In this document: one piece after another, positions 1,966 through 22,106 of the stretch
Layout of the letters: each line of letters starts with the position of its first letter
Numbering within the stretch: the stretch's first letter is position 1
Source: Myxococcales bacterium
GTDB taxonomy: Bacteria > Myxococcota_C > UBA6777
Assembly: GCA_027005175.1 (NCBI GenBank)
Contig: JALTMC010000836.1
Coordinates: 1 to 34,324, forward strand
Length of the DNA: 34,324 nt
Direction: 5' to 3'
Translations under genes and position numbers: made by a program
The notes under the pieces: generated by a model
What the model was told of the DNA's origin: nothing
Databases searched by the model: none
What the model saw: only the letters and a program-made list of their open reading frames with translations

Positions 1966-3810
1966 TCATCCATGATTTTTGCGGGTGGATTTCTTGTGTT
2001 TGTGTCCTTTGTGTTTCGTGGGCTTCTTTCTTTTGGGTTGGAGGCGTTTGGTTGCATAGGCTACAGCACGGCGTACTGAGAGGCTGGGATCTTTTTGAAG
2101 GGTTTTGAGTGCTTTGAGGATCTTTTTACGAATGTAGTTTCGGATCTTGCCTACGTGAGCGAGAGTATAGGCAGCTTGGGTACGAAGCTCGGGGTCGGGT
2201 GATTGTAAAGTCTTTGTGATGATTCGAATGGCTCGTCGAGAGCGGGGTGCGAGCTGTTGGAGTGTTTTGAGTGCGTCGAGAGAGAACTCGTCGTCTTTCT
2301 TTTTGAGTAGGCGTGTGAGGGCTTTGACGCCGCGTCGAGAGCCGATACGAGCCAGTGCCCGAATGACAGCATGTTTGACGGTGGTATCTTTCTCTCGTCG
2401 GAGTCGTCGGCTCAGGGAGCGGGCGGCTTTGCGAGCTTTTCGGCCAAATCTCCCCAAGGCTCGGACCACAGCGAGTCTGATCCCTGCGTGGTCATCCCGA
2501 AGGTTTCGACGAAACGCAGTGACGGACCAGCGTTGGAGTCCAATACGGACAAGTGTCTTAATCGCAGCGAGACGGACTTCGATACGTTTGTCTTTGTACA
2601 ACAGTCTGACAAGGGCAGGGACTGCTTTACGGGATTTCTTTCCCATTCGCCAGATATGAAGGGCTGTTTCCTCTCGAACCTGCCAGGAACGATCGCGACG
2701 TAGTCGTCGGATTAATCCATAGATCGCTTGTTGTGCTTGCATTCTACACAAGGCATGAACTGCCGCAAGCCGAACCTCTTCAGCGTTGTCACGAAGTCTA
2801 CGACGAAGAAGTCGGTGTGTTTGTTTTGCAGCACGTGGCCCCATTTGACCTAAAGCTTCGGCAGCATGGCGACGAACTTCAGCCTTTCTGGCCCGAAGTA
2901 ACTTCTTTAAGACAGGGATGATCTTGTTGCTTTGTTTGCCCAAAGCTTCCGAAGCAAGAGAGCGCACCGTTGCATCTTTGTCATACAAGGCGTCTAGCAG
3001 CTTTTGAATGACACGATTGTCGAGAGGCCCCATACGAATCAATGCCCACACGACACTGCGTCGAACGCCCTCACTGGTATCCTGAAATCGCTTGTTTAAA
3101 GCGGGAATGGTTTGTCTGGCTGACAGGCCGATATGTCCTAGGGCGCGAGCAGCAGCTTCCCTTACAGAGGGAGCTTGGGCGCTGAGATTTTTTTGCAAGA
3201 CAGGCAAGATCCGGGGCAAGGACACGGTGTATTGGGCTCCAATACGACCCAATGCATAGGTTGCGAAGCTTCGAGGTTTGGTGGCTTGCTTGCGAGCCAT
3301 CTGAAGTAAATTAGGTAGCACAAAGCGAGCGGCAGAACCCATTCTTGCGAAGGTGATCGCCATTTGGGCGCGGACCTCGGGATGAGGATCTTGTAGAGCT
3401 TTCTTCAGTCGAAAGATAAATGTCGCTGGGTGGGTTTTAAATCGGCCTAAAGCGATTGCGGCAAGGACACGAACCTTCACATCTTTGTCGCGGAGAACTC
3501 GCACCAGGGCGGGTATGATTCTTTTGTAATAGGAGCTTTGGTTGCCCAGGTATACCACTGCTTTGCGTCGAACATCTTTGCTTGGGTCTTGAAGGGCTTG
3601 GAGATGCCAGTTGATGACGGTGTCTTGAAACTCTGTCCATCGTCTTATTCGCTCTAAGGCTCGAATACGCGACCAGGCATCTGGGTTGTGTAGTTCGTCA
3701 ACCCATCGTTTAAACTTTTTGTCCTGGTCGGGCTTCTCCTGGCTGGCCCAGACGCTTCCCACACCAATACACCAAGCAGCGAGAAAGAGCATACTCCAAA
3801 AGCGCATCAT
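1966..3810 (-). CDS. Secreted HEAT-repeat (PBS lyase HEAT-like) protein, very basic
   Basis: Many L.D....VR..AA.ALG repeats; signal peptide MMRFWSMLFLAAWCIGVGSVWA. Start moved from 3888 to 3810 because GGAGG lies upstream of 3810 and 3888 falls inside an inverted-repeat arm. Confidence 0.85.
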   Translation of the reverse strand: MMRFWSMLFLAAWCIGVGSVWASQEKPDQDKKFKRWVDELHNPDAWSRIRALERIRRWTEFQDTVINWHLQALQDPSKDVRRKAVVYLGNQSSYYKRIIPALVRVLRDKDVKVRVLAAIALGRFKTHPATFIFRLKKALQDPHPEVRAQMAITFARMGSAARFVLPNLLQMARKQATKPRSFATYALGRIGAQYTVSLPRILPVLQKNLSAQAPSVREAAARALGHIGLSARQTIPALNKRFQDTSEGVRRSVVWALIRMGPLDNRVIQKLLDALYDKDATVRSLASEALGKQSNKIIPVLKKLLRARKAEVRRHAAEALGQMGPRAAKQTHRLLRRRLRDNAEEVRLAAVHALCRMQAQQAIYGLIRRLRRDRSWQVREETALHIWRMGKKSRKAVPALVRLLYKDKRIEVRLAAIKTLVRIGLQRWSVTAFRRNLRDDHAGIRLAVVRALGRFGRKARKAARSLSRRLRREKDTTVKHAVIRALARIGSRRGVKALTRLLKKKDDEFSLDALKTLQQLAPRSRRAIRIITKTLQSPDPELRTQAAYTLAHVGKIRNYIRKKILKALKTLQKDPSLSVRRAVAYATKRLQPKRKKPTKHKGHKHKKSTRKNHG

Positions 3811-3880
3811 ACCTGCTTTGACCTCCTTGTTGGGTTTGGACGGGTCTCTGCTCTCTTGCGATAAGGGAGCCTTACGGTAC

Positions 3881-3937
3881 GATACCATAGCATGAGGATT
3901 TACGAAAAAAGACCGTAAATCCTCATGCTATGGTATC
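3881..3937. repeat. Perfect 24-bp inverted repeat with 9-nt loop
   Basis: GATACCATAGCATGAGGATTTACG (3881-3904) / CGTAAATCCTCATGCTATGGTATC (3914-3937). Confidence 0.95.
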
Positions 3938-3996: not shown

Positions 3997-4168
3997 TCAT
4001 GCTTTTGGGCTTGGTATGGAAGGACTGTCTCTGATAGGTGGTTCGAAGCTGTCATGCTTTTGGGCTTGGTATGGAAGGACTGTCTCTGATAGGTGGTTCG
4101 AATCTGATTTCTATGCTTGAAACAGGTGGTTCGAATCTGATTTCTATGCTTGAAACAGGTGGTTAGAA
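3997..4168. repeat. Compound tandem repeat (2x 51 bp with period 55; 2x 33 bp) anchored on the cyoE stop codon
   Basis: 51-bp copies at 3997-4047 and 4052-4102; 33-bp copies at 4091-4123 and 4124-4156. The 12-mer AGGTGGTTMGAA occurs at 4036, 4091, 4124 and 4157; the last copy spans the cyoE TAA. Confidence 0.95.
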
Positions 4169-5080
4169 GATGGTTCCCATGATCAAAGCTCCGAAGAGGA
4201 GGACGAGGTAGAGGAGGGTATGCAAGAAAAATCGTTTGGCTTGTTTCACAGGTTGAGTGCTCTGCAACCAAGAAAGGCAAGAGCCAAAGATCCAGCCTCC
4301 AAGCATAAGTGCGGGGGCTCCGTACCACCAACTCGCTTGCTGCCATGCGATGGGTAGAAGGCTTGCTAGAATCAGACCCAGGGTGAAAAGGAAGACGACA
4401 TATCGCGTCGCTTTCATCCCATATACACCTGTGAATGTTGGGATATTTGCTTTTGCATACTGAGATCGCAGTCCCATAGCAAGAGCGAGAGAGTGAACAA
4501 GTTGCCAAAAGATCATAATAATGAACAGAGAAGAGCCTTCGAGAGAGATACTGTTTGCGGCAGCGGTCCAGCCCATGAGAGCGGGAATTGCGCCAGGCAA
4601 TGTACCGATCACAAAGGCAAGTGAAGTGCGTTTTTTGAGGGGGGTGTAAATCAAAGTATAGCTAACATAAGCGAGCGCACACAAAAGACCTGTGAGAGGA
4701 TTGACAGCAAACCATAGAATCAAGAACCCTGAGAGGCCGAGTCCTAGGCCAGTAAGCAGAGCTGTACGAGGAGGCAATCGATGAGCAGGCAATGGACGAT
4801 TCTGGGTGCGCGGCATCATCGCGTCGGTATTTCTCTCCAAGAACATATTGAGCGCACAGGCACCTCCGACAGAGAGGCCTGTGCCGATCAAAGTTGCCAG
4901 GGTCAGCCACATCGAGATCGGAGTGGTTGCTAGCCAAAGACCTCCGCCAGCGGTCAGCACGGAAGAGAAAACAATCCCAGGCTTTGTTAATGCAATCACA
5001 TCACGAGTCCACTGTTTCACGGATGAACGTGAGGATGTGACATGGGTGGATGGGCTCAAAGAAGTTGTGTTCAATGCCAT
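4163..5080 (-). CDS. cyoE: Heme O synthase (protoheme IX farnesyltransferase, CyoE/CtaB)
   Basis: LTKPGI, ALNMFLERNTDAMMPRTQNRPLP, YTPLKK, GAIPALMGWTAA and FWQ..H motifs; multiple TM helices; overlaps the upstream gene by 10 nt. Confidence 0.95.
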   Translation of the reverse strand: MALNTTSLSPSTHVTSSRSSVKQWTRDVIALTKPGIVFSSVLTAGGGLWLATTPISMWLTLATLIGTGLSVGGACALNMFLERNTDAMMPRTQNRPLPAHRLPPRTALLTGLGLGLSGFLILWFAVNPLTGLLCALAYVSYTLIYTPLKKRTSLAFVIGTLPGAIPALMGWTAAANSISLEGSSLFIIMIFWQLVHSLALAMGLRSQYAKANIPTFTGVYGMKATRYVVFLFTLGLILASLLPIAWQQASWWYGAPALMLGGWIFGSCLSWLQSTQPVKQAKRFFLHTLLYLVLLFGALIMGTIF

Positions 5081-7164
5081 TGGAAACCTCGCACTTTGTT
5101 AAACAGAACCACTCTTCGGTAGGAGGGACGGAATCGGATGTTTCGCGATGTTTTGTAGTTCCATTCTTTGGAGTTCGGCGTGTCACTGATCTCGACACGT
5201 ACCTTGTGGAGACCTGCCTTCACCGGAACCCGTTCGATCGCAATACTGTTGCCATCTTCAAAGATGCCTTTGGGACGAAAGGAGCGTTGCGTGACGATCG
5301 CTCCGTCTACCCAAACACGCAGACGCACGGGAACACGTTTGCGCTGAACCTGCTTCATTCCACGCATATGTGGCAAGAGCTTTTCCTGTTCCTTTTTGGA
5401 TAAAGCCTTGGCTTTTATAAGCTGCCCTGGGTGTTTGAAGGATACAACCAGCATGGGGCGTTGGTCTGCCGCGCTCTGGTATGTTGCATCGCTGAGTCCC
5501 CATATCAGCCAGCCAAGCCCCATCAACACTACGATGGTCACGAGGCCAGCACCGATACGTTGGAAGGAGTCTTTTGGTGGTGCTTTTGTTTGTTCTCGAA
5601 AGGCCTTTGCTGTCTTTAAGAAAGCCTCGGGCTCGGAACGCTCAAAAGAGACGTGAAGCAGGGGTTTCCCATTCAACTTATCTTCGCGAAGTTGGGGCTC
5701 ACGTTTGCCTTCGATTCGTTGTGTGGTCCAGGTATCTCCAAGGCGACAGGCAGCATCGGGACCACAGCCCGCAACCAAAACCCCGTCTGCACCGTGACGA
5801 ATGGCTCTTTCGATGGTGAGCATATGAACCCAACCTGAGCATGGAACAGGACGTACACGGTACCCTGGTAGCTCATCACACAATCCTGTAACTTCATCGA
5901 CATGGAGAGAGCTTGCTGCAGATTCAGCGCAAACAAACGCCACCATCGGGGCATCCTTCTCTTTGGACTCATCCAGCCAACCGTCCATTTGTTTGCGTAC
6001 ATCAAGAGGCTCTAGCGCAGGAAATGTCACTCCATAAGAGTCGCATGAGCCAACACAAACCCCACACCCTACACATTTTGCAGGATCAACTTGCGCAAGC
6101 AGAGGATACTTGCCTTCTCTTGGAATCATGGAGATCGCGTTATAAGGGCAGTCTGTATAACATGCATTGCAAGCATTGCATCGAGAGGCGTTAATGACGG
6201 CAGCAGGGGCGCGTCGTCGGGCAAGCCACCATGGCATACTTAGAGCGATTAATGTTACTCCCATACTTAAGGCCCAAAGGGTGCCTCCTTGCAGTCGCTC
6301 TGTGAGATAAATGGGCAGCATATAGAACCAATCCATACCGAGGGTTGACGGCACAGCTTGCATCGCAGCGGGTTTGGATGAAAAAGCCGGAAAGAACAGT
6401 GAAATCGCGACAAGGCTTATACAAATTGCAACGGTCATCCGGGAGTTGGTGAGAAACCGCGACAAACTTAAACGAGTGATATGAATCCAGATCAGGACTG
6501 CGAAGACCAGAGGGATGAGCATATGAAAAAAGAAGATAATAAAGAACAGCAAGCTATTGACGCTGCTATTGACCAGAAAAGAACGAGAGAGAGGATCTGC
6601 AAAGATAGGCAAGACATCGAGAAGTTTGGATGTACCCACAGCGATTTGAGCGGCGCGATCATCCCAAACCAGCCAATATCCGGTCCAACCTACAAACCAC
6701 AAGGTCGCCATGGCAAGGATTCCTGTGATCCAGGCTAGCCATTGGGGGCCTGTTATTTTTCGGGCGAGGATAATCTGTATCGCATGCAGGAGTACAAATA
6801 ACATACAAGCGTCTGAGCTATACCTATGAAGAGAGCGTAGAAGTTGGGCTAGCCATGGAGACTGCTTCATCATCTCCAATGAAGTATAAGCTTTGTGTAC
6901 ACTGGGAACATACCAAAAGAGTAGCAGGACCCCTGTGATTGCGGCAATGATAAATGTGACATTGGCAATAGCACCCAACTGCGTTAAAGGGTGCAATGCC
7001 TCTGGAATCCATTTTCCAACCATGGTCCGAAGCCACAGCCAGCCGCGCTCCAAAAAGCGCAACACAGATTCTCCCCATACAAGGGTACCAGGTCGTGTCT
7101 GCTCTACTTTATGTTGCGAACGATGGACCATCCTATTTTCAGATGGTGCGACGACTTCTTTCAC
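5071..7164 (-). CDS. Cytochrome b-like domain fused to 2x[4Fe-4S] ferredoxin, MvhD/FlpD-type [2Fe-2S] domain and a C-terminal extracytoplasmic domain
   Basis: Two H-x13-H heme pairs (HRYSSDACMLFVLLH; HMLIPLVFAVLIWIH), GWTGYWLVW, DWFY at the PEWY position; CNACNACYTDCP and CVGCGVCVGSC; MvhD-like AFVC...PCSG...GADGVLVAGC-x5-C; then a TM helix and a soluble domain. GTG start with SD AAGGGAG. Confidence 0.85.
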   Translation of the reverse strand: MKEVVAPSENRMVHRSQHKVEQTRPGTLVWGESVLRFLERGWLWLRTMVGKWIPEALHPLTQLGAIANVTFIIAAITGVLLLFWYVPSVHKAYTSLEMMKQSPWLAQLLRSLHRYSSDACMLFVLLHAIQIILARKITGPQWLAWITGILAMATLWFVGWTGYWLVWDDRAAQIAVGTSKLLDVLPIFADPLSRSFLVNSSVNSLLFFIIFFFHMLIPLVFAVLIWIHITRLSLSRFLTNSRMTVAICISLVAISLFFPAFSSKPAAMQAVPSTLGMDWFYMLPIYLTERLQGGTLWALSMGVTLIALSMPWWLARRRAPAAVINASRCNACNACYTDCPYNAISMIPREGKYPLLAQVDPAKCVGCGVCVGSCDSYGVTFPALEPLDVRKQMDGWLDESKEKDAPMVAFVCAESAASSLHVDEVTGLCDELPGYRVRPVPCSGWVHMLTIERAIRHGADGVLVAGCGPDAACRLGDTWTTQRIEGKREPQLREDKLNGKPLLHVSFERSEPEAFLKTAKAFREQTKAPPKDSFQRIGAGLVTIVVLMGLGWLIWGLSDATYQSAADQRPMLVVSFKHPGQLIKAKALSKKEQEKLLPHMRGMKQVQRKRVPVRLRVWVDGAIVTQRSFRPKGIFEDGNSIAIERVPVKAGLHKVRVEISDTPNSKEWNYKTSRNIRFRPSYRRVVLFNKVRGFQWH

Positions 7165-7352: not shown

Positions 7353-8327
7353 TTAACTTTGAGTCTTTGATGTAGGGGTGGTCTGACCTTCGCGGAGAAG
7401 CAATTGCAAAGCCTGAGTCAGCCAGGATTCTTGCCGCTTTCCAAGCGTAAAACGATAGGCGATCTTGCCTTTGCGATCGATCAGGATAAACAGGTTCACA
7501 TGATCGATAACCCCTGTTTTTGGATTTCGCTTTCGGGCAAAATTGAAAGAATCAAGCACGCGATTCACATCGCTAACTTCCCCTGTTAGCAAGTTAAAGG
7601 TCGGAGCTTTGACTTTGTGAGCTTTTGCCATATTGCTCAATCGTTGGGTGGTATCGCGTTTGGGATCAAGTGTGATCGCGAGCACATGAACATTCTTCTG
7701 TTGTTTTGGGGGCAATGTACGCAAGACTCGCTTGATCTGGGCGAGAATCATTGGGCACGTATAGCCACAAGAGGAGTACACTCCTGTCACCATCACAACC
7801 TTGCCCCGAAACTGCTTTAAAGACACCTTCTGTTTTTCTTGGTTGAGCAATGTAAAAGAGGGTGGAGTATGAGTTGTACGCAGAGCTTCCGCAGGGAAGG
7901 CTTTTTCTTTTTTGGAAGAAGAGGCTGGCTTGTATACCAGCGCAAAGGTCACTCCTGTTGAACTTACCAGAAGAAAAGACACCGCAATATAGGGGAGGAA
8001 AGGACGAACCCCTCGACGCAGCTGGACAAACAAGCGCCCCCCCCAAACAAGAAGTATCACTCCCACAAGCACAAATGTGCTGGCAAGCATAGAGAACACA
8101 TAGCCCCAGTCGAGATTGCCAGTGGTAGGGTTGTAACCAAAACACCACACTTTAAAATCTTGAACCATGCCTCCCCATAAAGAAGATGTGCTGGGAAGAA
8201 GTAAAACACCAAACATCAAGACATTGAGAAAGACAACTGTAGACAATGCAAAGGCAGGAAACTGCCATCCATTAAAGAAACGTTCTACCACTCCGAGGCT
8301 CTCAAAGCTATGTTTTTCTGAGCGCAT
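7353..8327 (-). CDS. SCO1/SenC copper chaperone with an extended N-terminal membrane region (about 3 TM)
   Basis: CGYTCP (CxxxC) plus IDH His ligand; thioredoxin-fold motifs FTLLNQ, ITLDPKRDT, LIDRKGKI. Start placed at ATG 8327 behind GGAGG (the track starts at 8360). Confidence 0.9.
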   Translation of the reverse strand: MRSEKHSFESLGVVERFFNGWQFPAFALSTVVFLNVLMFGVLLLPSTSSLWGGMVQDFKVWCFGYNPTTGNLDWGYVFSMLASTFVLVGVILLVWGGRLFVQLRRGVRPFLPYIAVSFLLVSSTGVTFALVYKPASSSKKEKAFPAEALRTTHTPPSFTLLNQEKQKVSLKQFRGKVVMVTGVYSSCGYTCPMILAQIKRVLRTLPPKQQKNVHVLAITLDPKRDTTQRLSNMAKAHKVKAPTFNLLTGEVSDVNRVLDSFNFARKRNPKTGVIDHVNLFILIDRKGKIAYRFTLGKRQESWLTQALQLLLREGQTTPTSKTQS

Positions 8328-8717: not shown

Positions 8718-10436
8718 TTATCGGACGTGCCAAACGTCGGCCAAAGCCTTCCAGTTGGCAAAGTAATAGACCACAAAGCAAACAAAGAAGATGCCGACAA
8801 GAACGACAGTTCCCGGGATTTTAAAGCGTCCATCTTTGGGAGTGTGATCTGTGGTATAAGCCTCAAGGGATTTTTTATCCGCTTCTGCGTCTTGCCAGGA
8901 AGGCATCTTTTGGCCAGCGATGGAGCGGCCAAAAAAGACGGTCAGAACGACAGGAAGGATGTACATCAATGCAGCGATAAACAGAATACTTCCACCAATA
9001 CCAACCAATGCTAGCATGGTGTGAGCACCTGATTCAAAGCCAGCAGCCATCGGTGCGCCAGTAAATCCAACATCCCAGTGACGGCGTGGAACACCGTAGG
9101 AACCAGCGAAGGACATACCGATCGACATCAGCAAGAGCCCAACCGCAAAAACATAGGGCTGCAATCGAACAACGCCTTTAAAGTAAAAGTCTTTTTGAAA
9201 GATCAGAGGGACAACATAATAAGTTAGCCCCATAAAGGCCAGGGTTGTTCCACCAACAACGGTGGCATGAAAGTGACCGGGAATACGGAGGGTGTTGTGT
9301 GCGATGATGTTGATCTGGTGAGTACCCAGAGTAACACCTGTGATACCACCGATAAACCCGAAAATAAGGAGGGAAAGGAAGAAGGCAGAGAAGCCTGGAT
9401 CGCGCCATGGTGCGTTGCTCAACCACCCAAAGAGACCTTTGGTAAAGCCTTTGGAGCGCTGTGCTACTTCGACGGATGCTGGAACAGTGAAGCCATGAAT
9501 CATCGAAGCCATCACTGCGAGATACATCGCATACGAGGTGTTCCACATCTTCCACACAGAGCCAACGCCTGGATCAACCAGGAGGTGATGGGCGGAGGCG
9601 AGGTTGATGAACAGAATGTAGAGTACAAAAGCTGCACGACAAACGGTCTCATTAATGGGCTTTGCGCCAGTGGTCAGGGTTCCCAAGAAGTACCAAACAG
9701 CAACCATAGCGCACACATTGATCTGTTGGGATTGGTGTCCAAGGCCCCACCAAAGCAAACGATATACACCCGCATCAAAGTTTTTGATCCAACCCAACGA
9801 CCAGAAGTAGGCAGGGATCATCACAGAAGCACCGTGTAGGAGGGTGACCACGGCGATGATCGCAGCGGCCAAAGCCCCAAAAGCAACCAAAGGCATGGAG
9901 CCTTCGTAGGTTTTGTCGCGACGTGCAATATAGACCGTTGCGAAAAAGTTAAACACGCCGATCAGCGTGCCCACGGAAAATAAGATAATTCCCAAATAGA
10001 AGTTGGGATCGGCTTTGAGAGGAACATACGATGTCATTAAGACATCGCCCTTACCCATGAAAACGATGACTTCTACCATGACAGCACCTACGGCCATCAT
10101 CAGAAAAGATACCCAGGCGATCTTTCTTGAGAAGAGTCGACTGTTAAGTAAGGAAGTTCCAGCAAAATAGAGTATGGCGATTTCCATAAAGATGATCCAG
10201 AAGATCAACATACTCAAACCATGTACTGTCAGCAGCCGGTAGTACCAAACTGCGTTGAGCAGGTGCACAGCAGACCAGCGTGTTAGTGCAATTAAAACAC
10301 CAACAGATGCACCGATTAAAATACAAACCACCGCCAACACAGCGTTGAGGCGAATAAAGAATTGTGCATCAAGACATACCGATAATCCGGTAGTGTCACA
10401 CGTACGAGAACGTCCAGTTAGAAAGTTACCCATCAT
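8718..10436 (-). CDS. Heme-copper oxidoreductase subunit I, B-family-derived, eNOR-type nitric oxide reductase
   Basis: All six His ligands are present: TVHG, WGLGHQSQQ, SAHHLL, GHFH; also HNT and PRR. Position H+4 of the first CuB His is Gln, not the cross-linked Tyr of O2 reductases, matching the eNOR signature as I recall it. Confidence 0.85.
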   Translation of the reverse strand: MMGNFLTGRSRTCDTTGLSVCLDAQFFIRLNAVLAVVCILIGASVGVLIALTRWSAVHLLNAVWYYRLLTVHGLSMLIFWIIFMEIAILYFAGTSLLNSRLFSRKIAWVSFLMMAVGAVMVEVIVFMGKGDVLMTSYVPLKADPNFYLGIILFSVGTLIGVFNFFATVYIARRDKTYEGSMPLVAFGALAAAIIAVVTLLHGASVMIPAYFWSLGWIKNFDAGVYRLLWWGLGHQSQQINVCAMVAVWYFLGTLTTGAKPINETVCRAAFVLYILFINLASAHHLLVDPGVGSVWKMWNTSYAMYLAVMASMIHGFTVPASVEVAQRSKGFTKGLFGWLSNAPWRDPGFSAFFLSLLIFGFIGGITGVTLGTHQINIIAHNTLRIPGHFHATVVGGTTLAFMGLTYYVVPLIFQKDFYFKGVVRLQPYVFAVGLLLMSIGMSFAGSYGVPRRHWDVGFTGAPMAAGFESGAHTMLALVGIGGSILFIAALMYILPVVLTVFFGRSIAGQKMPSWQDAEADKKSLEAYTTDHTPKDGRFKIPGTVVLVGIFFVCFVVYYFANWKALADVWHVR

Positions 10437-10442
10437 CGTCTC

Positions 10443-10973
10443 CTATTCCACAATGATCTTGCCGGTCATGAGATGATGGCCAATTCCACAGAATTCATTA
10501 CAAATCACTTGGAATGTACCTTTTCGCGTCGGCTTTATCGTAAGAACGTGGTCATAACCCGGTAGGATGTGAAAGTTCATATTAATCGGCAAAAGAGAAA
10601 ATCCATGTTGCAAGTCTGCCGAAGAGATATGCAGACGATATGTCTGGTTTACTTTCAGTTTAATGATCGGATACCACATCCACATTCGACCCAGGAGGTA
10701 AGCGTTACCGCCCGGCTCAGGCTGAACAATAGGTATCCCCAGCTTTTTATCCTTTCCTACTTTGTGAGTTTTTACCCAGCGATTCACCCGTTTGACAAAG
10801 TCTTTTGGCTTCACTCGATACGACTCACCTGAACTTGTTTGTTTGCCTTTAAAATGCCAAAATGGCATCGCAGCAAACATGACCATGCACCACGTTAGTG
10901 CTATTCCCACCCACATGGCTTCGGCACCTTTGGGAGCGTGGAACCATCCTTTTTTGGGAGGATGTATACTCAT
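10443..10973 (-). CDS. Heme-copper oxidoreductase subunit II (CuA), single TM
   Basis: D.QHGF and CNEFCGIGHHLM CuA motif; one N-terminal TM as in B-family subunit II. ATG at 10973 follows AAGGAG (the track starts at TTG 10991). Confidence 0.92.
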   Translation of the reverse strand: MSIHPPKKGWFHAPKGAEAMWVGIALTWCMVMFAAMPFWHFKGKQTSSGESYRVKPKDFVKRVNRWVKTHKVGKDKKLGIPIVQPEPGGNAYLLGRMWMWYPIIKLKVNQTYRLHISSADLQHGFSLLPINMNFHILPGYDHVLTIKPTRKGTFQVICNEFCGIGHHLMTGKIIVE

Positions 10974-11162
10974 CGCGTTCTCCTTCTCCAACAGATTCCA
11001 GAAAGATAACAGCTCGTTGTAGTCGAAGAAGGCAAAAGAGAAGATGCAGTACCGCGAACACGCAGCAACAATATTGCCTTTTCAAAGCCATCAACCATCA
11101 ACGAACAATTGTAGATCTCACATTATGAACGACTTAAAAAAATCGATGATTTGCCAACTTTT

Positions 11163-11384
11163 TTATGGCAATTTGGCAGGTCCCATCATCCACATATCAA
11201 TCAGACCCCACACTGTGTACGATAGGACTGGAATCACAACACCCAGAAAGAGGAGAAGCCATGGATTGTCCATGAGCTTTTGCAAGGGATGCACCTCGGC
11301 TTCCGGGGGCTCCGGAGACATACCCTGCTCCACCACCTCCTTGGCCGGTTCTTCCTGTGGAGACTTCTTTGACTGACTCATCAT
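11163..11384 (-). CDS. Small single-TM subunit of the oxidoreductase cluster (subunit IIa-like)
   Basis: LMDNPWLLLFLGVVIPVLSYTVWGLIDM hydrophobic helix; GGGAG upstream of the ATG; lies immediately upstream of subunit II. Confidence 0.75.
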   Translation of the reverse strand: MMSQSKKSPQEEPAKEVVEQGMSPEPPEAEVHPLQKLMDNPWLLLFLGVVIPVLSYTVWGLIDMWMMGPAKLP

Positions 11385-12753
11385 TTCTCTCCCATGAATC
11401 GAGTAAAGGTAGTACAGGCTTTCGACGACGCCAAGCTACAATGACCAATGACAGAAAAAGCAACCCTCCCACCACCGCGACGAGCCCACCCAGTCCCATA
11501 AACCACATCCCTACTTGCTCACTTGTGGAGCGAATGTTTTGTTCACGGCCATAGATCTTACGGGCCATTTTCGCATATCCAAAACCTAGCGCAAACACCA
11601 CTTGTCCTACGCCAAATACAACAGGTTGCCATCTCGCCAAACGCTTCATCCTAGCGCTGGACCAATCCCATCGAAACTCCTGACACAACAAATAGGTAAC
11701 TGTCATAAAAGACACCGTTACCGCACCGATCGCCGCGTGATAATGCGCGGGAATCAACGTACTTGAACTGCGAATCATCGCACCCAACACAAAGCCCAAG
11801 ACCGTGAGGGATGCACTCGCTAGAAAACCCCACAAATAGGGTGCTTTCAAAGACTCTTTCTTTCTATTTCCCGCCCGAAGTCCACGAAAAATCGCCAACA
11901 AACACGCCAGCAGGATCAAACTGGCGATAGGGAAGATGCCCCATCGCATTAATATCGTAAATCTCGGATAATAAGTGGCTGTTGTTGTTCCCTGCCAAGC
12001 CCACCAAGGGGCCACACATGCTGGTGCCAAAAGAAGGCCAAACAACACTCTCGCCCAACGATGCGACAAAGGTGAAAAACCCAGAACACGATCCAGGAGC
12101 AGCACCCACACAGAGAGCATCGCTGCCACACTCGCAACCTGCAAGACATGCCCACCTCCCCAAAACACCAACTCATAATAAGAGCCTGCGGACATACTTG
12201 TAGGTGTGGTCCACCATGCACCCATAAAAGTGAACATCGCCAACAAAAATGCGAACGCTGAAGCACGCAAACCCACACGAGTCGCAGCGGGTAGCTTTAA
12301 AAATCCTGAGTCACCCGAACTCTCGATCCACCGCTCCCACTTCATAAAGGTCCCGATGACAGCGATCCCAAATACTACCAAACCCACAACGAAAAGAGGA
12401 TGATCCAGAGCCGGGATATAGTTGGATAAGACCGGACGCACACCTGTGATCGCACCACAAGACACAAACAAAAGAACCCCGAGAAGACCAAGCAGTACAG
12501 AACGCTGCCCCCCTTTTCCCGAAGATTGCGCAGGTAACGCAAGAAACAAGGAAGCGAGAAAACTATACAACCAAACTCCCAAAGCCAGGTTGACATGAAT
12601 CACAAGGCAACGACGCGCAAACAGGGGATCATTGATCCACTCATTCAATACAGGCAAACGCCCAATCACCAAGATGATCGAGAGCGTCCCCGCTAAAACC
12701 AGAGAACCTACCGCCAACATCAACCATCCTTGCGAACCCTGTCGATCTCCCAT
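11197..12753 (-). CDS. Degenerate COX1-fold membrane protein (subunit I paralogue lacking the CuB His-His pair)
   Basis: About 12 TM; IHVNL, FWGGGHVLQ, IPAHYH and ARK occupy the positions of the subunit I heme/CuB motifs, but there is no HH pair. The last ~60 codons overlap the small-subunit gene. Confidence 0.8.
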   Translation of the reverse strand: MGDRQGSQGWLMLAVGSLVLAGTLSIILVIGRLPVLNEWINDPLFARRCLVIHVNLALGVWLYSFLASLFLALPAQSSGKGGQRSVLLGLLGVLLFVSCGAITGVRPVLSNYIPALDHPLFVVGLVVFGIAVIGTFMKWERWIESSGDSGFLKLPAATRVGLRASAFAFLLAMFTFMGAWWTTPTSMSAGSYYELVFWGGGHVLQVASVAAMLSVWVLLLDRVLGFSPLSHRWARVLFGLLLAPACVAPWWAWQGTTTATYYPRFTILMRWGIFPIASLILLACLLAIFRGLRAGNRKKESLKAPYLWGFLASASLTVLGFVLGAMIRSSSTLIPAHYHAAIGAVTVSFMTVTYLLCQEFRWDWSSARMKRLARWQPVVFGVGQVVFALGFGYAKMARKIYGREQNIRSTSEQVGMWFMGLGGLVAVVGGLLFLSLVIVAWRRRKPVLPLLDSWERNDESVKEVSTGRTGQGGGGAGYVSGAPGSRGASLAKAHGQSMASPLSGCCDSSPIVHSVGSD

Positions 12754-16504: not shown

Positions 16505-18460
16505 ATGAAGTGGCAAACGTTTGACAATACATCCTCCAAAGCTCTTTCTCAGGCCAGGGCACCCACACAGTCTTCTATGGAAGAAGTTACCGAAACATCG
16601 ATGGTTGCGAACCCACCCCCTATATCCGCTTCTGAAACATCGACAACCACACCGACTTCTTTTGCTTCACACAGTTCCTGTCCAAATTGCCAGTTTACAC
16701 TCCAGGCCAGACACCAAAGTCTGACCTTTTGTCCAGATTGTAGCTTCCCTATTCGTATCCTGGAAGGAAAGTACCGCCTGGACAAAGCCCTTGCTGAGGG
16801 AGGGTTTGGCGTTGTTTATATCGCTTCTCAAGCTCAGTCTTCAGCACCCTGTGTTGTGAAAGTCATTCGGCCAGAGGTGTTTGAGCTACCTGGCATGGAA
16901 GCACGCTTTCGTAGAGAGATCCGGGTAACCAAGCAGATCGCCCATGAGAACGAACATATCATCAATATCTTCGACCATGGAGAAGAGAAGGATATCGGCT
17001 GCTACTATGTGATGGAGTTACTTCAGGGTGAGAGCCTTGAAGAATATTTGTACAAGAATAAAGCGATGAGCTTTCAACAAGTCTTTCATATCTTTGCTCA
17101 GATGTGCGATGCCCTCTCTCTTGCTCATGCCAAAGGCATTATTCACCGAGATCTCAAACCAGACAACATCTTTTTGATCGAGAAAGAGGGTGACCCCTGC
17201 TTTGTAAAGATCCTTGATTTTGGTATTGCCAAACCCCTCGATGGAACAGTCAATGTTGGCCTGACAAAGGGGGCCTTGGGAACACCGGCATATATGTCAC
17301 CCGAACAATGCACCAACAGCACAATCAGTGCTGCCACTGACATCTATGCGCTGGGCATCATCTTGTATGAGTTGCTCACAAGAACTCTACCCTTTGAAGA
17401 TAGTGCGATGGCTTCTCTTTTGCTCAAACATCTCACAGAGGTACCTGAATCCCTGCTGGAGCGCCGACCGGACTTGCACTTTCCTAAAATGCTTGACCAG
17501 GCTCTGCAGATCGCTCTGGCGAAAAAACCTGAAGCTCGCTTTCACAGTGTTCAAGAGTTTTGGACAGCTCTGGCACCTTACTCACATCTGGAAGGCTTCG
17601 CGACTGTTCTTCCGAGGGATGCAGCAAAAGAAAAAGAGTTGGCTCCAACCAGACAGCCTTGCGAAGCAGACCGAGCCTTTGCCCCAACAGGAACCTTTCA
17701 TTCACCCGATGTCTCTCTCTCTGACTCTCTCAGCGCGACAGTGGTTGGAGAAAAAGTCAGTGGTCCACATCGTCCGGTAACAATCCAACGGACATCTTCT
17801 TCTCAACTTCCCTTGTTTGCTCTACTTGGTCTTCTGCTTTTGGCTCTCAGTGTAGGAGGAGTCTATACCTTCAAAGATAAGTTCTTTTCCAATTCCAAGA
17901 AGCCTCCTTACACCCGTCAAAACAGACCACACAAAGCCAAAGTGGTGCTTCTCTCTCACCGCAAGCCTTCCAAGCCTGAAAGAAAAATTGCCACAACTCC
18001 TCGGGTCGTACCCACTCTTCCCAAAGAGCAAGAGCCTGTGATCGACGATACAAAAGTGGAGCCCAGAAAGAGGATAAGACGTCGACTTCGACGACGAAAA
18101 CGTACCCAGAAAAAGAAGGCCCGAAGCAAGGTCATCCCCATGGGGATAGCAGGTCGAAAATGTGGAGTAAACCCACCCGGTAAGGTGAAAATTTGGGGGC
18201 AGTTTAAGCGTACAGGCATTAAGGTCAAATTCACCTTTTCAGGATGTGGTTCCTGCCGGGTGAGGAGGCGTAGAAGAGGCTACTGCCTAACGCTACCCAA
18301 GTCTCGCAAAAGCATCAGTGTTCGCATTAAAGCCTCAGGATTCCAATCCTGTGCTCATCGAATTTCTACAAGCTCACAATATGTCCGTTGGACATTCAAA
18401 GTGGAGGAGCCCGATGATCTCGTAGATGAAAATTACAATTGTTTGAGAGTTCTTCGCTAG
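16505..18460 (+). CDS. Membrane Ser/Thr protein kinase (zinc ribbon - kinase - TM - Arg-rich linker - 6-Cys domain)
   Basis: CPNC..CPDC; AEGGFGVVY, VVKV, HRDLKPDN, DFG, GTPAYMSPEQ, DIYALG; TM LFALLGLLLLALSVGGVY. Confidence 0.93.
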   Translation: MKWQTFDNTSSKALSQARAPTQSSMEEVTETSMVANPPPISASETSTTTPTSFASHSSCPNCQFTLQARHQSLTFCPDCSFPIRILEGKYRLDKALAEGGFGVVYIASQAQSSAPCVVKVIRPEVFELPGMEARFRREIRVTKQIAHENEHIINIFDHGEEKDIGCYYVMELLQGESLEEYLYKNKAMSFQQVFHIFAQMCDALSLAHAKGIIHRDLKPDNIFLIEKEGDPCFVKILDFGIAKPLDGTVNVGLTKGALGTPAYMSPEQCTNSTISAATDIYALGIILYELLTRTLPFEDSAMASLLLKHLTEVPESLLERRPDLHFPKMLDQALQIALAKKPEARFHSVQEFWTALAPYSHLEGFATVLPRDAAKEKELAPTRQPCEADRAFAPTGTFHSPDVSLSDSLSATVVGEKVSGPHRPVTIQRTSSSQLPLFALLGLLLLALSVGGVYTFKDKFFSNSKKPPYTRQNRPHKAKVVLLSHRKPSKPERKIATTPRVVPTLPKEQEPVIDDTKVEPRKRIRRRLRRRKRTQKKKARSKVIPMGIAGRKCGVNPPGKVKIWGQFKRTGIKVKFTFSGCGSCRVRRRRRGYCLTLPKSRKSISVRIKASGFQSCAHRISTSSQYVRWTFKVEEPDDLVDENYNCLRVLR

Positions 18461-18503
18461 CCCGCATGATTCCATTCCTAGCAGAACGTTCGTGAATCAT
18501 CTG
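18457..18503. repeat. Degenerate second copy of the small MITE-like element; its left end includes the kinase TAG stop
   Basis: CTAGCCCGCATGATTC identical to 8648-8663, plus shared TAGCAGA and GTGAATCAT. Confidence 0.75.
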
Positions 18504-18512
18504 GATTCGAAC

Positions 18513-20423
18513 CTACTTTACCCGATAAGTACAATTGTAGTTCTCATCGGCCAATGCATCGGGCTCCTCTACTTTCAGTAACCATCGTAAACTTCGGACA
18601 GAAGAGCGCAGTCGATAGATACAGGTTTGGTGCCCATCTGCTGACACTTGTACACGAGCCTGCTTGAGAGACTTCGGTATCCACAAACAATATTTACCGG
18701 ATTTTTGCTTCACACGACATCCAGAGCAGCCTACGATTCGGATACGTGCCCGACGCGGCTTTTGCATCCGAGTTACAACCCACCGATGTGTTGGTGAACC
18801 CGCTCCACAAGGTCCCTCATCACGAGTCGCAGCGTTATGTCGTGTTCGTACTTGCCGATGACTTCGTGTCTTGCGTCGAAGACTTGTCCGACGACGAATC
18901 CGGTGTCCTCGATATTTCCGCCGTGTTCGCACTCGCCGATGGCTTCGTGTTTTGCGTCGAAGACTTGTCCGACGACGAACCCGGTGTCCTCGATGTTTCC
19001 GCCGTGTTCGCACCACTGGTGGAGCTAGGCGGGTGGGCTCGACTTGGATGGACTCCATGGAGGAATCTGGAACAGAAAGTGGTAACCTCCGCAGAACAGG
19101 CTGCTTCTTTGCCAAAGCAACCAGGCGTGGTTTTTCCGTTCGTACCCGATTTTTGATGGGCTTACCACGCAAAGGCTTGGATGATAGGGAAACTTTGCCT
19201 CCTCCTCCAGATCTCAGTTGGTCTTGAAACAAAAAAGCAGTGACGCCAAGTACAACAATCATAAGAATTGTAACAACAAGCCAAAGGGAGCGGTTTCCCT
19301 GAGAGATCTCTGTCTGTTCACTTTGAGAAAGAATTCTTTCTCCTGTGGGCAATCCTTGAGAGTTTGAGGTTTGTTTGGAGTAGGGCAAGGTCCCTGTCCC
19401 TGTTTCGGGGGAGAATGCTCCAAACTGGTTGCGCTCTCTAGAGACCTTACCCAGCATGGGAAGCTGCAACCCTCCAGGATGGGTTCTAACGATCGCATTC
19501 CAAAAATCATCGAGAGTTGGGTAGCGTTGTGCTGAAGCTTTGGACATAGCACGCTGCAAGACTTCGGACAGCCCTACAAGATCAGGTCGCCATTGCGTGA
19601 GGGGGATCGTCTCTTGCATCAAATGGGCTGTCATCATTGTCAGCATGGTTTGGCTATCCAATTGCCCACCATCCATTCCATAAGGATTGCGAGCACTGAG
19701 CATCTCATACAGAATAATAGCCAGAGAGTACTGGTCAGAGCGAGCGTCAATCAAGCCGTTGTTGCACTGCTCTGGTGACATATAGATGGGAGTACCCAAG
19801 ACCCCTTTGGTCAGCTTTGTGGCTGAATCAGCCTCATCCCGAGCGATACCAAAATCAATCACTTTTACAAAGTTCTGCCCATCACGTTGTACCAAATAAA
19901 TGTTGTCGGGCTTTAAATCGCGATGCACAATTTTCTGTTGGTGTGCTGCACTCAATCCCTTACAAACTTGATAAAAGATATGCAGCGCTGTTTGTGCTGG
20001 CAAGCCCTCTTCTTGTGGCATGATATCAGTCAGAGGAGTTCCTCGCAGAAACTCCATAACATAGTAGTGACCGAGGCCTTTCTCTTCACCAAAGTCATCA
20101 TAGATTCGTACGATATGTTCATTGCGCTGTGAAAGTGCTGCTGTTACCTGTACTTCTCGCCGAAATCGTTTCTCCATTCCTGAAGTTTTAAAAACCTCAG
20201 GTTTGATCACTTTAACCACACGTTCTGTGTCGTAATCTAGGTGTATATGCTGAGCCAGATAAACCTGCCCCATACCACCCTGTGCTAACTCGCGCTCCAA
20301 CTTGTATTTGCCTGCAACCAGCATCAAAGGAAATCGACATTGGGGACAAAGTCGAAAACTATCCGTATTTTTATAGCTACACTTGGGACAAACTTCAATT
20401 GCTACAGACATAAAAACGCTCAA
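18513..20423 (-). CDS. Membrane Ser/Thr protein kinase, paralogue of 16505-18460
   Basis: CPKC..CPQC; AQGGMGQVY, VVKVIKPEVF...GMEKRFRREV, HRDLKPDN, DFG, GTPIYMSPEQ; TM; ends KVEEPDALADENYNC like its partner. Alternative start is ATG 20411. Confidence 0.93.
   Translation of the reverse strand: MSVFMSVAIEVCPKCSYKNTDSFRLCPQCRFPLMLVAGKYKLERELAQGGMGQVYLAQHIHLDYDTERVVKVIKPEVFKTSGMEKRFRREVQVTAALSQRNEHIVRIYDDFGEEKGLGHYYVMEFLRGTPLTDIMPQEEGLPAQTALHIFYQVCKGLSAAHQQKIVHRDLKPDNIYLVQRDGQNFVKVIDFGIARDEADSATKLTKGVLGTPIYMSPEQCNNGLIDARSDQYSLAIILYEMLSARNPYGMDGGQLDSQTMLTMMTAHLMQETIPLTQWRPDLVGLSEVLQRAMSKASAQRYPTLDDFWNAIVRTHPGGLQLPMLGKVSRERNQFGAFSPETGTGTLPYSKQTSNSQGLPTGERILSQSEQTEISQGNRSLWLVVTILMIVVLGVTAFLFQDQLRSGGGGKVSLSSKPLRGKPIKNRVRTEKPRLVALAKKQPVLRRLPLSVPDSSMESIQVEPTRLAPPVVRTRRKHRGHRVRRRTSLRRKTRSHRRVRTRRKYRGHRIRRRTSLRRKTRSHRQVRTRHNAATRDEGPCGAGSPTHRWVVTRMQKPRRARIRIVGCSGCRVKQKSGKYCLWIPKSLKQARVQVSADGHQTCIYRLRSSVRSLRWLLKVEEPDALADENYNCTYRVK
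18841..19013. repeat. Intragenic 81-bp tandem repeat (about 2.1 copies) encoding an Arg/His-rich 27-mer
   Basis: CGTGTTCG recurs at 18841, 18922 and 19003; peptide VRTRRKHRGHRVRRRTSLRRKTRSHRR. Confidence 0.95.
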
Positions 20424-20560
20424 ACCCCATTCGAAGTAAAAGGAAACAAAAAAACAAGATTGAGCACAGGCTATCCCAATTCCCTCAATCTGTCAACGAT
20501 GATACGAAGAAAAGTCTGTGCATTCAGGTGATTAGATTAGTGTTGTCTTCTCTGTTCCGA

Positions 20561-20589
20561 TTGACAGTCTACCTTATCCCTGTTATCTT
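20561..20589 (+). promoter_or_regulatory. Putative sigma70 promoter with extended -10
   Basis: TTGACA (20561-20566), 17-nt spacer ending TGT, TATCTT (20584-20589), upstream of ATG 20646. Confidence 0.6.
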
Positions 20590-20645
20590 GCCAAAGCCCA
20601 AATCAAATTTTGATGGTCCAGCAAAAGTGGATGGGATGTTGTTAA

Positions 20646-22007
20646 ATGAGAAAGAAGCTGTTGAAGAAATGTAGCAACAATCTGCTCATTTTCTTTCTGG
20701 TGTCGTTGCTCTGTCTGGCCTATTTCCATGCCTGCTCCACATCACTCCCATCTGTTAAAGATGGAGGGGAGCTTTCTATTTTGGGAGATGGGATCACCAG
20801 CGAAAAAGTAGAGTCCAAGAAAGAGCACTCTTCTCAGGAACGCATATTGCGTGAGAGAGGAACCTCAGAGTACCTCAACGATGCTGGACTCAAGGACAAC
20901 AGACAAAACGACGCCATTTCTGAGAAACCTGACACAGCGAGAGAGTCTACCTCATCTCCAGAGCGTTGGGTTGATTCAGAGCCTTCCACCCCGGAGAGAA
21001 AGGTCCCTGAACCTATACAGGAAACATCCCCTGACACCTCGCAGATCCCCTCTTGTAGTGGAGCCCACTGTCCCATTGTCATTGGCTCCTTTCCTTACAA
21101 GGACAACCGAGATACCAAACGAGCCACGCGAAAGCGCTTTTCTCGTTACAACTGCGCTCCCAACACCGACGAAAGTGGTGGAGAATACCTCTATGTCTTT
21201 GAGGTAAAAAAACCAGGTTCATTGTTGGCAATGCTGACCAACGCCAAGGGTGTCGACATCGACATCCATCTTCTTTCAAGCCCCAGCGCAAGTGCCTGTC
21301 TGGTCCGTAATGACAAGGGCCTGAGCCGTCATATATCACCAGGTGTTTACTATATTGCCGCAGATACTTTTGTCTCGAAAGGAACACCGAAGCCCGGTGC
21401 CTACAGCATCTATGTCCACTTCTTTCCCGACAACAGCCGTTGTGGCATGAAAAGTGATGCTATTCCTCGCATCAACACCACAAAGTTACTATCGATGCCT
21501 GCCACGGGGCCTGTTGTAAAGGAAGCACATCTACTTACCGCTGAAGAGCACACAGCAAATCTTCAAAGCGGCAAGAAACACTTTCCTACAGGTTGGCCCA
21601 AGTCGATTCGCGATCGAATCTCTGAGCACTACGCTCTCTCAGAGAAAGTCTCTGGGTATACGATGACCCGCACAGAGCCCTGGGCCCCCTGCTGTGAACC
21701 AACCAACCACTACGGTCAGGGCAGCCGCAGCAAACCTCCAGCAATTGCCGAGACCTGGTATATCAACATGCGCTGGAAGAAAGCCCCAAAGGCTGGAACC
21801 CGCTACATTGTCTTCAACCCAGTGACAGGCAAGGGTGTGGTCGCCGCCGCTGGTTACGAAAATGGACCGGGGAACCTGTCCCGTATTGGCGGTGCATCCG
21901 AAGAGATCCATCATCATCTTGGCACAGGGCACCTCTCTCTTATGACCTTTGGGGTTGCCCGAAAACAGTCCCACAAGTACGGTCCAATTGACTGCTACGC
22001 ACCTTAA
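20646..22007 (+). CDS. Probable lipoprotein with a PPC-like beta domain and a divergent RlpA/DPBB-like C-terminal domain
   Basis: Hydrophobic leader with FHAC; Ser/Glu/Pro linker; DIDIHLL...PGVYYIAADTF..GAYSI (PPC-like); GTRYIVFNPVTGKGVV..YENGP resembles RlpA GT.V.V.N..NGKSV.V..NDRGP. Confidence 0.6.
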   Translation: MRKKLLKKCSNNLLIFFLVSLLCLAYFHACSTSLPSVKDGGELSILGDGITSEKVESKKEHSSQERILRERGTSEYLNDAGLKDNRQNDAISEKPDTARESTSSPERWVDSEPSTPERKVPEPIQETSPDTSQIPSCSGAHCPIVIGSFPYKDNRDTKRATRKRFSRYNCAPNTDESGGEYLYVFEVKKPGSLLAMLTNAKGVDIDIHLLSSPSASACLVRNDKGLSRHISPGVYYIAADTFVSKGTPKPGAYSIYVHFFPDNSRCGMKSDAIPRINTTKLLSMPATGPVVKEAHLLTAEEHTANLQSGKKHFPTGWPKSIRDRISEHYALSEKVSGYTMTRTEPWAPCCEPTNHYGQGSRSKPPAIAETWYINMRWKKAPKAGTRYIVFNPVTGKGVVAAAGYENGPGNLSRIGGASEEIHHHLGTGHLSLMTFGVARKQSHKYGPIDCYAP

Positions 22008-22106
22008 ATCCCAGAGGCTTGTTGCGATTTCTGCTATGCTACGTCATCATGGGAGCAGGTAGTTTCCCGAGTTCATAGACTTTCTGATGATGGCTGACGA
22101 GTTCTA

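Follow-up and report, generated by a model that had tools for sequence, protein, structure and literature searches.

What a bc-type cytochrome b does among the genes of a nitric oxide (NO) reductase, with no Rieske protein beside it, is the question raised by a 34,324-nucleotide stretch of a Myxococcales bacterium (contig JALTMC010000836.1 of assembly GCA_027005175.1), which is called the window here. The gene concerned, P0001, encodes a protein that joins, in this order, a bc/b6-type di-heme cytochrome b (helices A-F), two [4Fe-4S] motifs, an MvhD/FlpD domain, a seventh transmembrane (TM) helix and a C-terminal beta-sandwich. It lies in a cassette for eNOR, a recently validated and widespread N2O-producing enzyme. 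A sequence-only reading of the window had proposed this anatomy for P0001, and the identification as a cytochrome b/Fe-S/MvhD protein is confirmed by Pfam, a 23-sequence alignment, AlphaFold2 and Foldseek. The absence of the usual partners, which the same reading had remarked on, is borne out as well: no Rieske, Hdr or cytochrome c family was found among the 21 open reading frames (ORFs) of the window scanned by Pfam, and no Hdr or Mvh genes stand beside P0001 or its relatives in the window and related loci. As argued below, P0001 probably serves the maturation of eNOR or its supply with electrons.

The membrane part of the protein is recognised by PF00033 (Cytochrome_B) at residues 49-232, with an E value of 2.8e-18 and 66.9 bits against a cut-off of 27.2. 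A profile of 23 relatives of P0001 found its best match in solved cytochrome b6 chains (E 4e-27), followed by the cytochrome b of bc1, and the best Foldseek matches of the P0001 model were the cytochrome b of bc1/b6f, over about 300 columns at E values of about 1e-6. In an alignment of 23 family members that are 44-66% identical to the window protein (A1), the heme-ligand pairs H113/H127 of helix B and H214/H228 of helix D, each spaced 13 residues, are invariant in 23/23, and so are the motifs GW.GYWLVWD and D..P....P..RSFL on the positive (P) side of the membrane. The P-side quinol-site features of cytochrome b6/bc1, to which GYWLVWD and LDxLPxF..P belong, are strongly conserved. The replacement of PEWY by MDWF, also noticed from the sequence alone, holds across the family in one respect: the Asp (D278) is invariant in A1 and an aromatic residue follows, with the canonical Pro position variable. 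The position of the heme cn Cys in b6 aligns to Gln in the family profile.

Fer4 families match at residues 322-376, in a region that resembles the ferredoxin insert of HdrA, and all eight Cys of both CxxCxxCxxxC motifs are invariant in A1. The next domain, at residues 408-527, is matched by PF02662 (FlpD/MvhD; E 1.2e-11, 45.2 bits against a cut-off of 22.3) and aligns to solved MvhD chains, for example 5odc_D (E 3.4e-5); of its Cys, C412, C442 and C467 are invariant in A1, and C473 is present in P0001 and missing in several relatives. Residues 321-527 as a whole match the ferredoxin and MvhD end of HdrA2 (NF040770, E 3.2e-21, a score below the cut-off of that family). The best NCBIfam matches of the full protein are far under their cut-offs, so that no family name results (b-type cytochrome ExtP, 94 bits against a cut-off of 290). 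The AlphaFold2 model (mean predicted local distance difference test score, pLDDT, 79.4; predicted template-modelling score, pTM, 0.74) contains helices A-F, the Fe-S/MvhD block, a TM helix at 536-558 and the sandwich at 560-697. Homology to cytochrome b6/bc1, together with the extra TM helix, places the N terminus and the Fe-S domains in the predicted topology on the cytoplasmic side and the last domain in the periplasm, which supports what had been proposed before, and the computed charge bias agrees weakly. Judged from its sequence, P0001 is a putative chain of redox centres that would be able to carry electrons across the membrane, between the MvhD/[4Fe-4S] end and the periplasmic face. Translation of the 697 residues starts at GTG; an alternative ATG at residue 12 would give 686 residues and is the start of the database copy P0009. 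The genome holds one copy of P0001.

Folded alone by AlphaFold2, the C-terminal domain is a beta-sandwich with a pLDDT of 93.2. No Pfam family covers residues ~530-697 of P0001; Pfam at E<=1, applied to the domain and 23 relatives, gave no credible family either, and Foldseek against the PDB gave nothing at E<=0.001. VIA-align returned generic beta-sandwiches, the top one being the luminal domain of HGSNAT (Z 9.1, root-mean-square deviation 2.6, 90 residues aligned), and a search of the ESM Atlas returned only stand-alone relatives of the domain itself, so that the fold points to no function. Such relatives are numerous: with the C-terminal 143 residues as query, 400 cluster representatives were found at E<=1e-3, many of them stand-alone proteins of 160-175 residues with one TM helix. 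The LPHM motif singled out by the sequence-only reading is present, and H599 and M600 of 'LPHMR' are invariant in the fused family (A1), but the His does not extend to the split relatives described below; in most of the 20 stand-alone relatives aligned it is Asn, the motif there being mostly LPPNMR with Met and Arg conserved. The sandwich domain as a whole conserves this Met and Arg and has largely conserved His and Asp residues. A relationship of the domain to FixG_C (PF11614) was considered and rejected at the sequence level, the hhalign probability against four FixG_C sequences being 0.3%.

Of 8000 candidates scored in a word-indexed protein search, 985 reached E<=1e-3, and the best 120 of these were examined. 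Among these, lengths range from 636 to 759 residues and identity to P0001, the window's own protein apart, from 41 to 65% (41-50% across phyla); nearly all have the same Pfam domains, and they are named 'hydrogenase iron-sulfur subunit' or 'cytochrome b N-terminal domain-containing protein'. No longer fused forms (1221-3485 residues) were found at E<=1e-30, which is weak evidence of their absence. In a collection where each species is represented by a single genome, the search patterns hit 358 stretches, of which 321 encode a P0001 relative; the best 80 of the 321 were analysed, and they carry the labels Myxococcota/'Deltaproteobacteria', Calditrichota, Rhodothermales, Balneolaceae, Verrucomicrobiota, Gemmatimonadota, Lentisphaeria, Leptospiraceae and KSB1.

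The window proteins were searched against the ORFs of these 80 loci, and for each neighbour only the loci with enough DNA on the side in question were counted. The fused cassette occupies one strand in a fixed order: a 518-residue protein (X518), the CuA-bearing subunit II, subunit I, Sco, the P0001 homologue and often heme O synthase. Sco lies directly upstream of the P0001 homologue in 74/75 loci; further upstream are subunit I (64/66), subunit II (63/65) and X518 (52/58), and heme O synthase is directly downstream in 28/66. The P0001 homologues therefore sit after the structural genes and among assembly genes, heme O synthase coming either after them or before Sco. When 960 neighbour ORFs were clustered by all-against-all BLAST, no other family appeared in more than 7 loci, save one cluster of antisense-shadow ORFs. 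The link to eNOR drawn by the sequence-only reading is thereby upheld: the homologues are found beside eNOR subunit I, not mostly apart from it or next to Rieske or Hdr genes, and they have no other conserved neighbour. Two loci depart from the pattern. An orphan copy in L067 (genome G561) lies amid unrelated genes, in an assembly that contains no eNOR-like subunit I at E<=1e-20, and in L056 (genome G008), on a single contig of 3.67 Mb, all that is left of subunit I ahead of Sco, the P0001 homologue and CyoE is its C-terminal third.

The cassette also exists in a split form. A metagenome scan with the stand-alone proteins matched at least 597 stretches, of which at least 527 encode a relative, and the best 80 were analysed. 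Among the 38 metagenome loci of at least 5 kb, a cytochrome b/Fe-S gene of 440-570 codons lies directly upstream of the domain gene in 36, one of these fused, and the remaining two have no upstream DNA; Sco is directly upstream of the cytochrome b/Fe-S gene of the split loci wherever there is enough upstream DNA. The order of the split cassette is subunit II, subunit I, (CyoE), Sco, cytochrome b/Fe-S, domain, (X518) and (second cytochrome b), the genes in brackets being those present in some cassettes. Whether as a fusion or as the gene that follows, the sandwich domain thus always accompanies the cytochrome b/Fe-S part, and order and strand of the cassette are kept across at least eight phylum-level labels in both architectures. 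The second cytochrome b of some split cassettes combines a cytochrome b with Fer2, FAD_binding_6 and NAD_binding_1 (three sequences, L143:10095-12092, L155:9877-11772 and L139:4158-6047). In a single metagenome case (L136:5699-7999), one frame of 766 residues joins SCO1/SenC, cytochrome b, two Fer4 and FlpD, as a natural fusion or through a sequencing error.

The co-occurrence of P0001 with eNOR was followed genome by genome. In the phylum of locus L020, represented by 301 genomes, 33 have a match to subunit I (E<=1e-40) and 36 a match to P0001; each of the 33 is among the 36 and carries the two genes within ~3 kb of each other on one contig, and the three extra P0001 matches are partial or near a contig start. 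Two genomes of this sample have the split form, a cytochrome b/Fer4/MvhD gene of ~530 codons followed directly by a sandwich-domain gene of ~180 codons, and in them this pair is divergent from subunit II, subunit I and Sco. In the class of Fodinibius (251 genomes), 12 genomes have a subunit I close to that of the window (64-71% identical, at least 593 bits) and a P0001 homologue adjoins it in 12/12; nine more have a distant subunit I of the Gln type (40-44% identical, 416-463 bits) and a P0001 homologue in 0/9 at E<=1e-25. One of the latter kind, locus L165 (G316:C1:166000-184000), is a minimal operon of the eNOR type: subunit II is followed there by a subunit I of the Gln type, 42% identical to that of the window, and by three small ORFs (259, 147 and 173 residues) without a Pfam family, next to unrelated genes, and there is no Sco, cytochrome b/Fe-S gene or X518. 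Since the homologue is present in 12/12 genomes with a close subunit I and in 0/9 with a distant one, eNOR exists in a minimal and an extended form, of which P0001 belongs to the extended one.

Positions of P0001, its parts and the genes around it in the window; residue numbers in the P0001 rows are those of the 697-residue protein.
Feature	Position	Strand	Evidence
Whole gene P0001, 697 aa	5071..7164	minus	ORF translation, Pfam
Di-heme cytochrome b core, residues 49-314 (helices A-F, cd and ef loops, xDWxY motif)	6223..7020	minus	PF00033, Foldseek, invariant residues
Two [4Fe-4S] ferredoxin motifs, residues 322-376	6037..6201	minus	Fer4 matches, eight invariant Cys
MvhD/FlpD-like domain, residues 408-527	5584..5943	minus	PF02662, alignment to MvhD chains
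Seventh TM helix, residues 536-558	5491..5559	minus	AlphaFold2 helix 536-558; hydropathy peak 537-555
C-terminal beta-sandwich, residues 559-697, with LPHMR; predicted periplasmic	5074..5490	minus	AlphaFold2
Heme O synthase CyoE/CtaB	4163..5080	minus	TIGR01473, 251.6 bits against cut-off 210.3
Cassette-specific Sco: three N-terminal TM helices, Cys in 'WCFGYNP' loop, CxxxC + His SCO domain	7353..8327	minus	PF02630 (E 1.7e-24), alignment A7
Heme-copper subunit I (P0004), eNOR type	8718..10436	minus	PF00115, alignment to 7deg_A, alignment A5
Subunit II with CuA motif (CNEFCGIGHHLM)	10443..10991	minus	PF00116, TIGR02866
X518 (P0006, 518 aa), divergent paralogue resembling heme-copper oxidases	11197..12753	minus	weak PF00115 match, alignment A5
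PD-(D/E)XK transposase gene, 2 kb beyond the cassette	984-1955	plus	

The assignment of the neighbouring subunit I to eNOR rests on helix VI, whose WWGLGHQSQQ was aligned by HMMER to GHPVVY of the B-family oxidase 7deg_A, with Gln238 falling at the position of the cross-linked Tyr; Gln in place of this Tyr is what defines eNOR in the accessible text of PMC8756737. In Dataset S8 of PMC11214002, ENOR is scored in Fodinibius halophilus (count 2) and in one Calditrichota genome (count 1), the latter matched to locus L002 by its genus label, and the cassette is present both in the Fodinibius halophilus locus and in L002.

Sco of the fused cassettes has three N-terminal TM helices and, beyond CxxxC and His, an invariant Cys in a periplasmic loop, F(K/R)xWCFGYDPxTG; in the split type, CxxYDP lies instead at the C terminus (LFCTxYDP..RY), before a C-terminal TM helix, in 7/8 sequences aligned, the eighth (L083) having the N-terminal form. 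A complex prediction of P0001 (residues 30-697) with Sco scored 0.01, below the mark, and speaks neither for nor against binding. X518 is the first gene of the fused cassettes and in many split ones comes after the domain gene. It retains the His of helix II, one of those in helix VI and the HxH of helix X, but the HH pair of the CuB/FeB site is missing (A5). The copy in the window bears a Gly/Ser-rich C-terminal tail, which the two other aligned copies are without. P0001 does lie between sco and cyoE, as the sequence-only reading had stressed, and overlaps cyoE by 10 nt; the overlap is no family trait, though, CyoE being directly downstream in fewer than half of the loci counted above. A scan for promoters and terminators found promoter-like sites at chance level.

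The window assembly is a bin (93.7% complete, 5.3% contamination), and its other contigs carry nirK, a gene for a cytochrome d1-type nitrite reductase and a NosZ-like gene; a canonical CcoG and a normal CtaA are also encoded elsewhere in the genome. Within six genomes of the window's own phylum, an eNOR-type subunit I is found in the window's genome only, which, together with the transposase gene near the cassette, suggests acquisition by horizontal transfer.

Of the ways in which P0001 might serve eNOR, the one tentatively preferred here is that of a dedicated transmembrane conduit, which would export cytoplasmic electrons to Sco and the beta-sandwich for the maturation of metal centres. On the cytoplasmic side, electrons would be taken up by the MvhD-type cluster and the two [4Fe-4S] clusters; they would then be handed across the membrane, first to heme bH and next to heme bL, and leave at a periplasmic face built from the conserved cd/ef loops and the C-terminal sandwich; the exported electrons would keep the Sco of the cassette and/or a bound metal, Cu(II) or perhaps Fe(III), in the reduced state, from which the metal centres of eNOR could be loaded. 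CcoG, acting for the cbb3 oxidases, and the di-heme metalloreductases of eukaryotes follow an analogous logic. The direction of the electrons, their acceptor and the role in maturation we infer from several observations: the position of the gene among assembly genes and after the structural ones, the invariant cofactor ligands (four heme His and eight [4Fe-4S] Cys), the linkage to a cassette-specific Sco with an extra invariant Cys, the TM-anchored sandwich that always accompanies the cytochrome b/Fe-S part, and the one metagenome frame that joins Sco, cytochrome b, Fer4 and FlpD. Export of electrons would also fit the split-cassette paralogue with Fer2, FAD and NAD(P)H-binding domains. Such modules normally oxidise NAD(P)H and hand the electrons onward. 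A role in maturation is favoured, too, by signs that eNOR can work without a P0001 homologue: such a homologue is absent from 9/9 genomes with a distant Gln-type subunit I, and there is the purified R. marinus enzyme, which was assayed with artificial donors (PMC11214002, accessible text).

Several points weigh against a conduit for maturation. The P-side quinol-site features (GYWLVWD, LDxLPxF..P and the invariant Asp of xDWxY) are strongly conserved, and they fit quinol chemistry better, as a pure wire to a protein or metal has no obvious need of them. In the loci examined the family is found beside eNOR-type subunit I only, although generic assembly factors serve many oxidases, and this could point to a catalytic link. 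The best 50 VIA-align matches of the C-terminal domain include no copper chaperone, sequence kinship between this domain and the C-terminal domain of CcoG was not found by hhalign or by Pfam at E<=1, and the LPHM His is replaced in most stand-alone relatives aligned. Homologues occur, moreover, in the proteome of denitrifying conditions described in the accessible part of a preprint (10.64898/2026.01.22.701106), which lends mild support to an abundant respiratory role.

Such a role is the substance of the main alternative, judged only slightly less likely, in which P0001 is a respiratory subunit, namely a Rieske-less quinol-oxidising (or quinone-reducing) module that connects eNOR and/or cytoplasmic Fe-S acceptors with the quinone pool. 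It could take the form of a redox loop like that of NarI/NarH, in which the electrons of quinol oxidised on the P side reach the cytoplasmic clusters by way of the two b hemes, or that of an electron-supply route to CuA, which would include the preprint's idea of NO reduction coupled to the reduction of a cytoplasmic carrier. The core, being closest to cytochrome b6 with its cd-loop motifs and an invariant acidic residue at the PEWY equivalent, speaks for it, as do the strict co-occurrence with eNOR-type subunit I (33/33 and 12/12), the 41-50% identity kept across phyla among the matches listed and the presence of the Fer2/FAD/NAD paralogue in the same cassettes; the preprint (10.64898/2026.01.22.701106), in its accessible part, finds such proteins in the denitrifying proteome and proposes a supercomplex. 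On the other hand, unless Sco or CuA fills that role, a Qo-type reaction would lack an encoded high-potential first acceptor, the Fe-S domains point away from CuA, the gene comes after the structural genes among Sco and CyoE, the genomes with a distant Gln-type eNOR have no homologue (0/9), and neighbour clustering brought out no conserved gene for a cytoplasmic acceptor. Were Sco to stand in Rieske's place, quinol would be oxidised at a Qo-like site, one electron reaching eNOR by way of the copper centre of Sco (or of CuA directly) and the other passing through bL and bH to the Fe-S/MvhD block and a low-potential cytoplasmic carrier, driven there by the very high potential of NO reduction; a Rieske-less, bifurcating NO respiration of this kind is considered unlikely.

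Help in the supply of heme O or heme As, with electrons (or reduced heme) delivered to heme O or heme A synthase, comes to mind because eNOR holds a modified heme a in both heme sites, and the accessible text of PMC11214002 gives eNOR heme As and places CtaA in many eNOR operons. The 10-nt overlap with cyoE in the window and the presence of CyoE in the cassette at many loci agree with this. The adjacency is not conserved, however, CyoE being directly downstream in 28/66 loci and Sco lying between the two genes in the split type; a normal CtaA elsewhere in the window genome weakens the idea of a CtaA substitute, and the always-linked periplasmic domain and Sco would be left unexplained, so that the proposal is distinctly unlikely. 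That P0001 should be a functionally unrelated passenger of the cassette, as the orphan copy in L067 and the subunit I fragment in L056 might suggest, is hardly credible in view of the order and strand conserved over at least eight phylum-level labels, in fused and split form, with near-perfect co-occurrence.

P0001 differs in definite ways from the known systems that come closest to it. With cytochrome b6 plus subunit IV of b6f, and with bc1 cytochrome b, it has in common the four-His di-heme bundle, helices A-F, the cd-loop motifs and the acidic residue at the PEWY equivalent; unlike them, its cassette has no Rieske protein or cytochrome c1/f, the protein is without the heme cn Cys, helices G/H are replaced by the cytoplasmic Fe-S/MvhD block, a new TM helix and the periplasmic sandwich, and the setting is that of an eNOR cassette. 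In NarI-NarH, HdrE-HdrD and QmoC, two b hemes span the membrane and join a quinone site to cytoplasmic Fe-S clusters, and Qmo has an MvhD-like domain, whereas the heme part of P0001 is of the bc1/b6 type (PF00033) and no Hdr, Apr or Nar partner is nearby in the window and related loci. The match of residues 321-527 to MvhD and the C-terminal part of HdrA2 comes without a hydrogenase or HdrABC context, and the fourth MvhD Cys is not conserved in the family. CcoG/FixG is a cupric reductase and an assembly factor of cbb3 oxidases. Membrane helices, two [4Fe-4S] motifs, a TM helix and a C-terminal beta-sandwich are common to it and P0001, as is an encoding with heme-copper oxidase and assembly genes, whereas P0001 has a heme-binding cytochrome b as its membrane part and an additional MvhD domain, and FixG_C does not match. 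The sequence-only description of P0001 as CcoG-like is accordingly apt for the domain order and fails for kinship of the last domain (hhalign 0.3%), and the genome has its canonical CcoG elsewhere.

The nearest precedent is the eNOR operon of Ferrigenium straubiae, for which the accessible part of the preprint (10.64898/2026.01.22.701106) lists eNOR II, eNOR I, heme O synthase, sco1, a 'scaffold' protein and two 'rather unusual' cytochrome b/Fe-S genes, and proposes a supercomplex that reduces NAD+. Going by this description, both gene and operon are of the kind met in the present cassettes, and the cytochrome b + Fer2 + FAD + NAD paralogue is found in the split cassettes as well; X518 may be the 'eNOR scaffold protein' of that account. 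Called unusual there, such a gene belongs to the cassette as a rule in the hundreds of genomes and contigs found here, and in the window it is fused with the C-terminal domain. The main text and seven supplements of PMC11214002, as far as accessible, contain no mention of a P0001-type protein, and a literature search that took in PMC10734462, with most subscription journals outside its reach, returned no description of the family beyond the preprint.

The common extended form of the eNOR operon, present in hundreds of species of many phyla, brings with it P0001 or its split relatives and the companion genes, and no member of the family has been studied. If the role in maturation is right, P0001 would represent a transmembrane reductase of a new type, one that serves the assembly of metal centres; if it links quinol oxidation to eNOR, the count of the energy yield of aerobic and microoxic denitrification would change, and a bc-type cytochrome b would for the first time be found to work in this way without a Rieske protein. 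In both cases P0001 serves well as a marker of the extended form, and a knockout is practical, as culturable species such as Fodinibius halophilus are named on the carrier or related records.

The rest of the window contains other features. Tandem arrays at 3997-4168, of 55 nt x 2.0 (98% identity) and 33 nt x 2.4 (97% identity), lie at and just past the 3' end of cyoE, before a gene (1966-3888, minus strand) for a 640-residue protein that consists almost wholly of HEAT repeats with a Lys/His-rich tail; this gene is downstream of cyoE on the same strand and is not conserved in related loci. Three Ser/Thr protein kinase genes, one with cNMP-binding domains, occupy 16505-23984, and a DUF6178 gene lies at 27737-29530.

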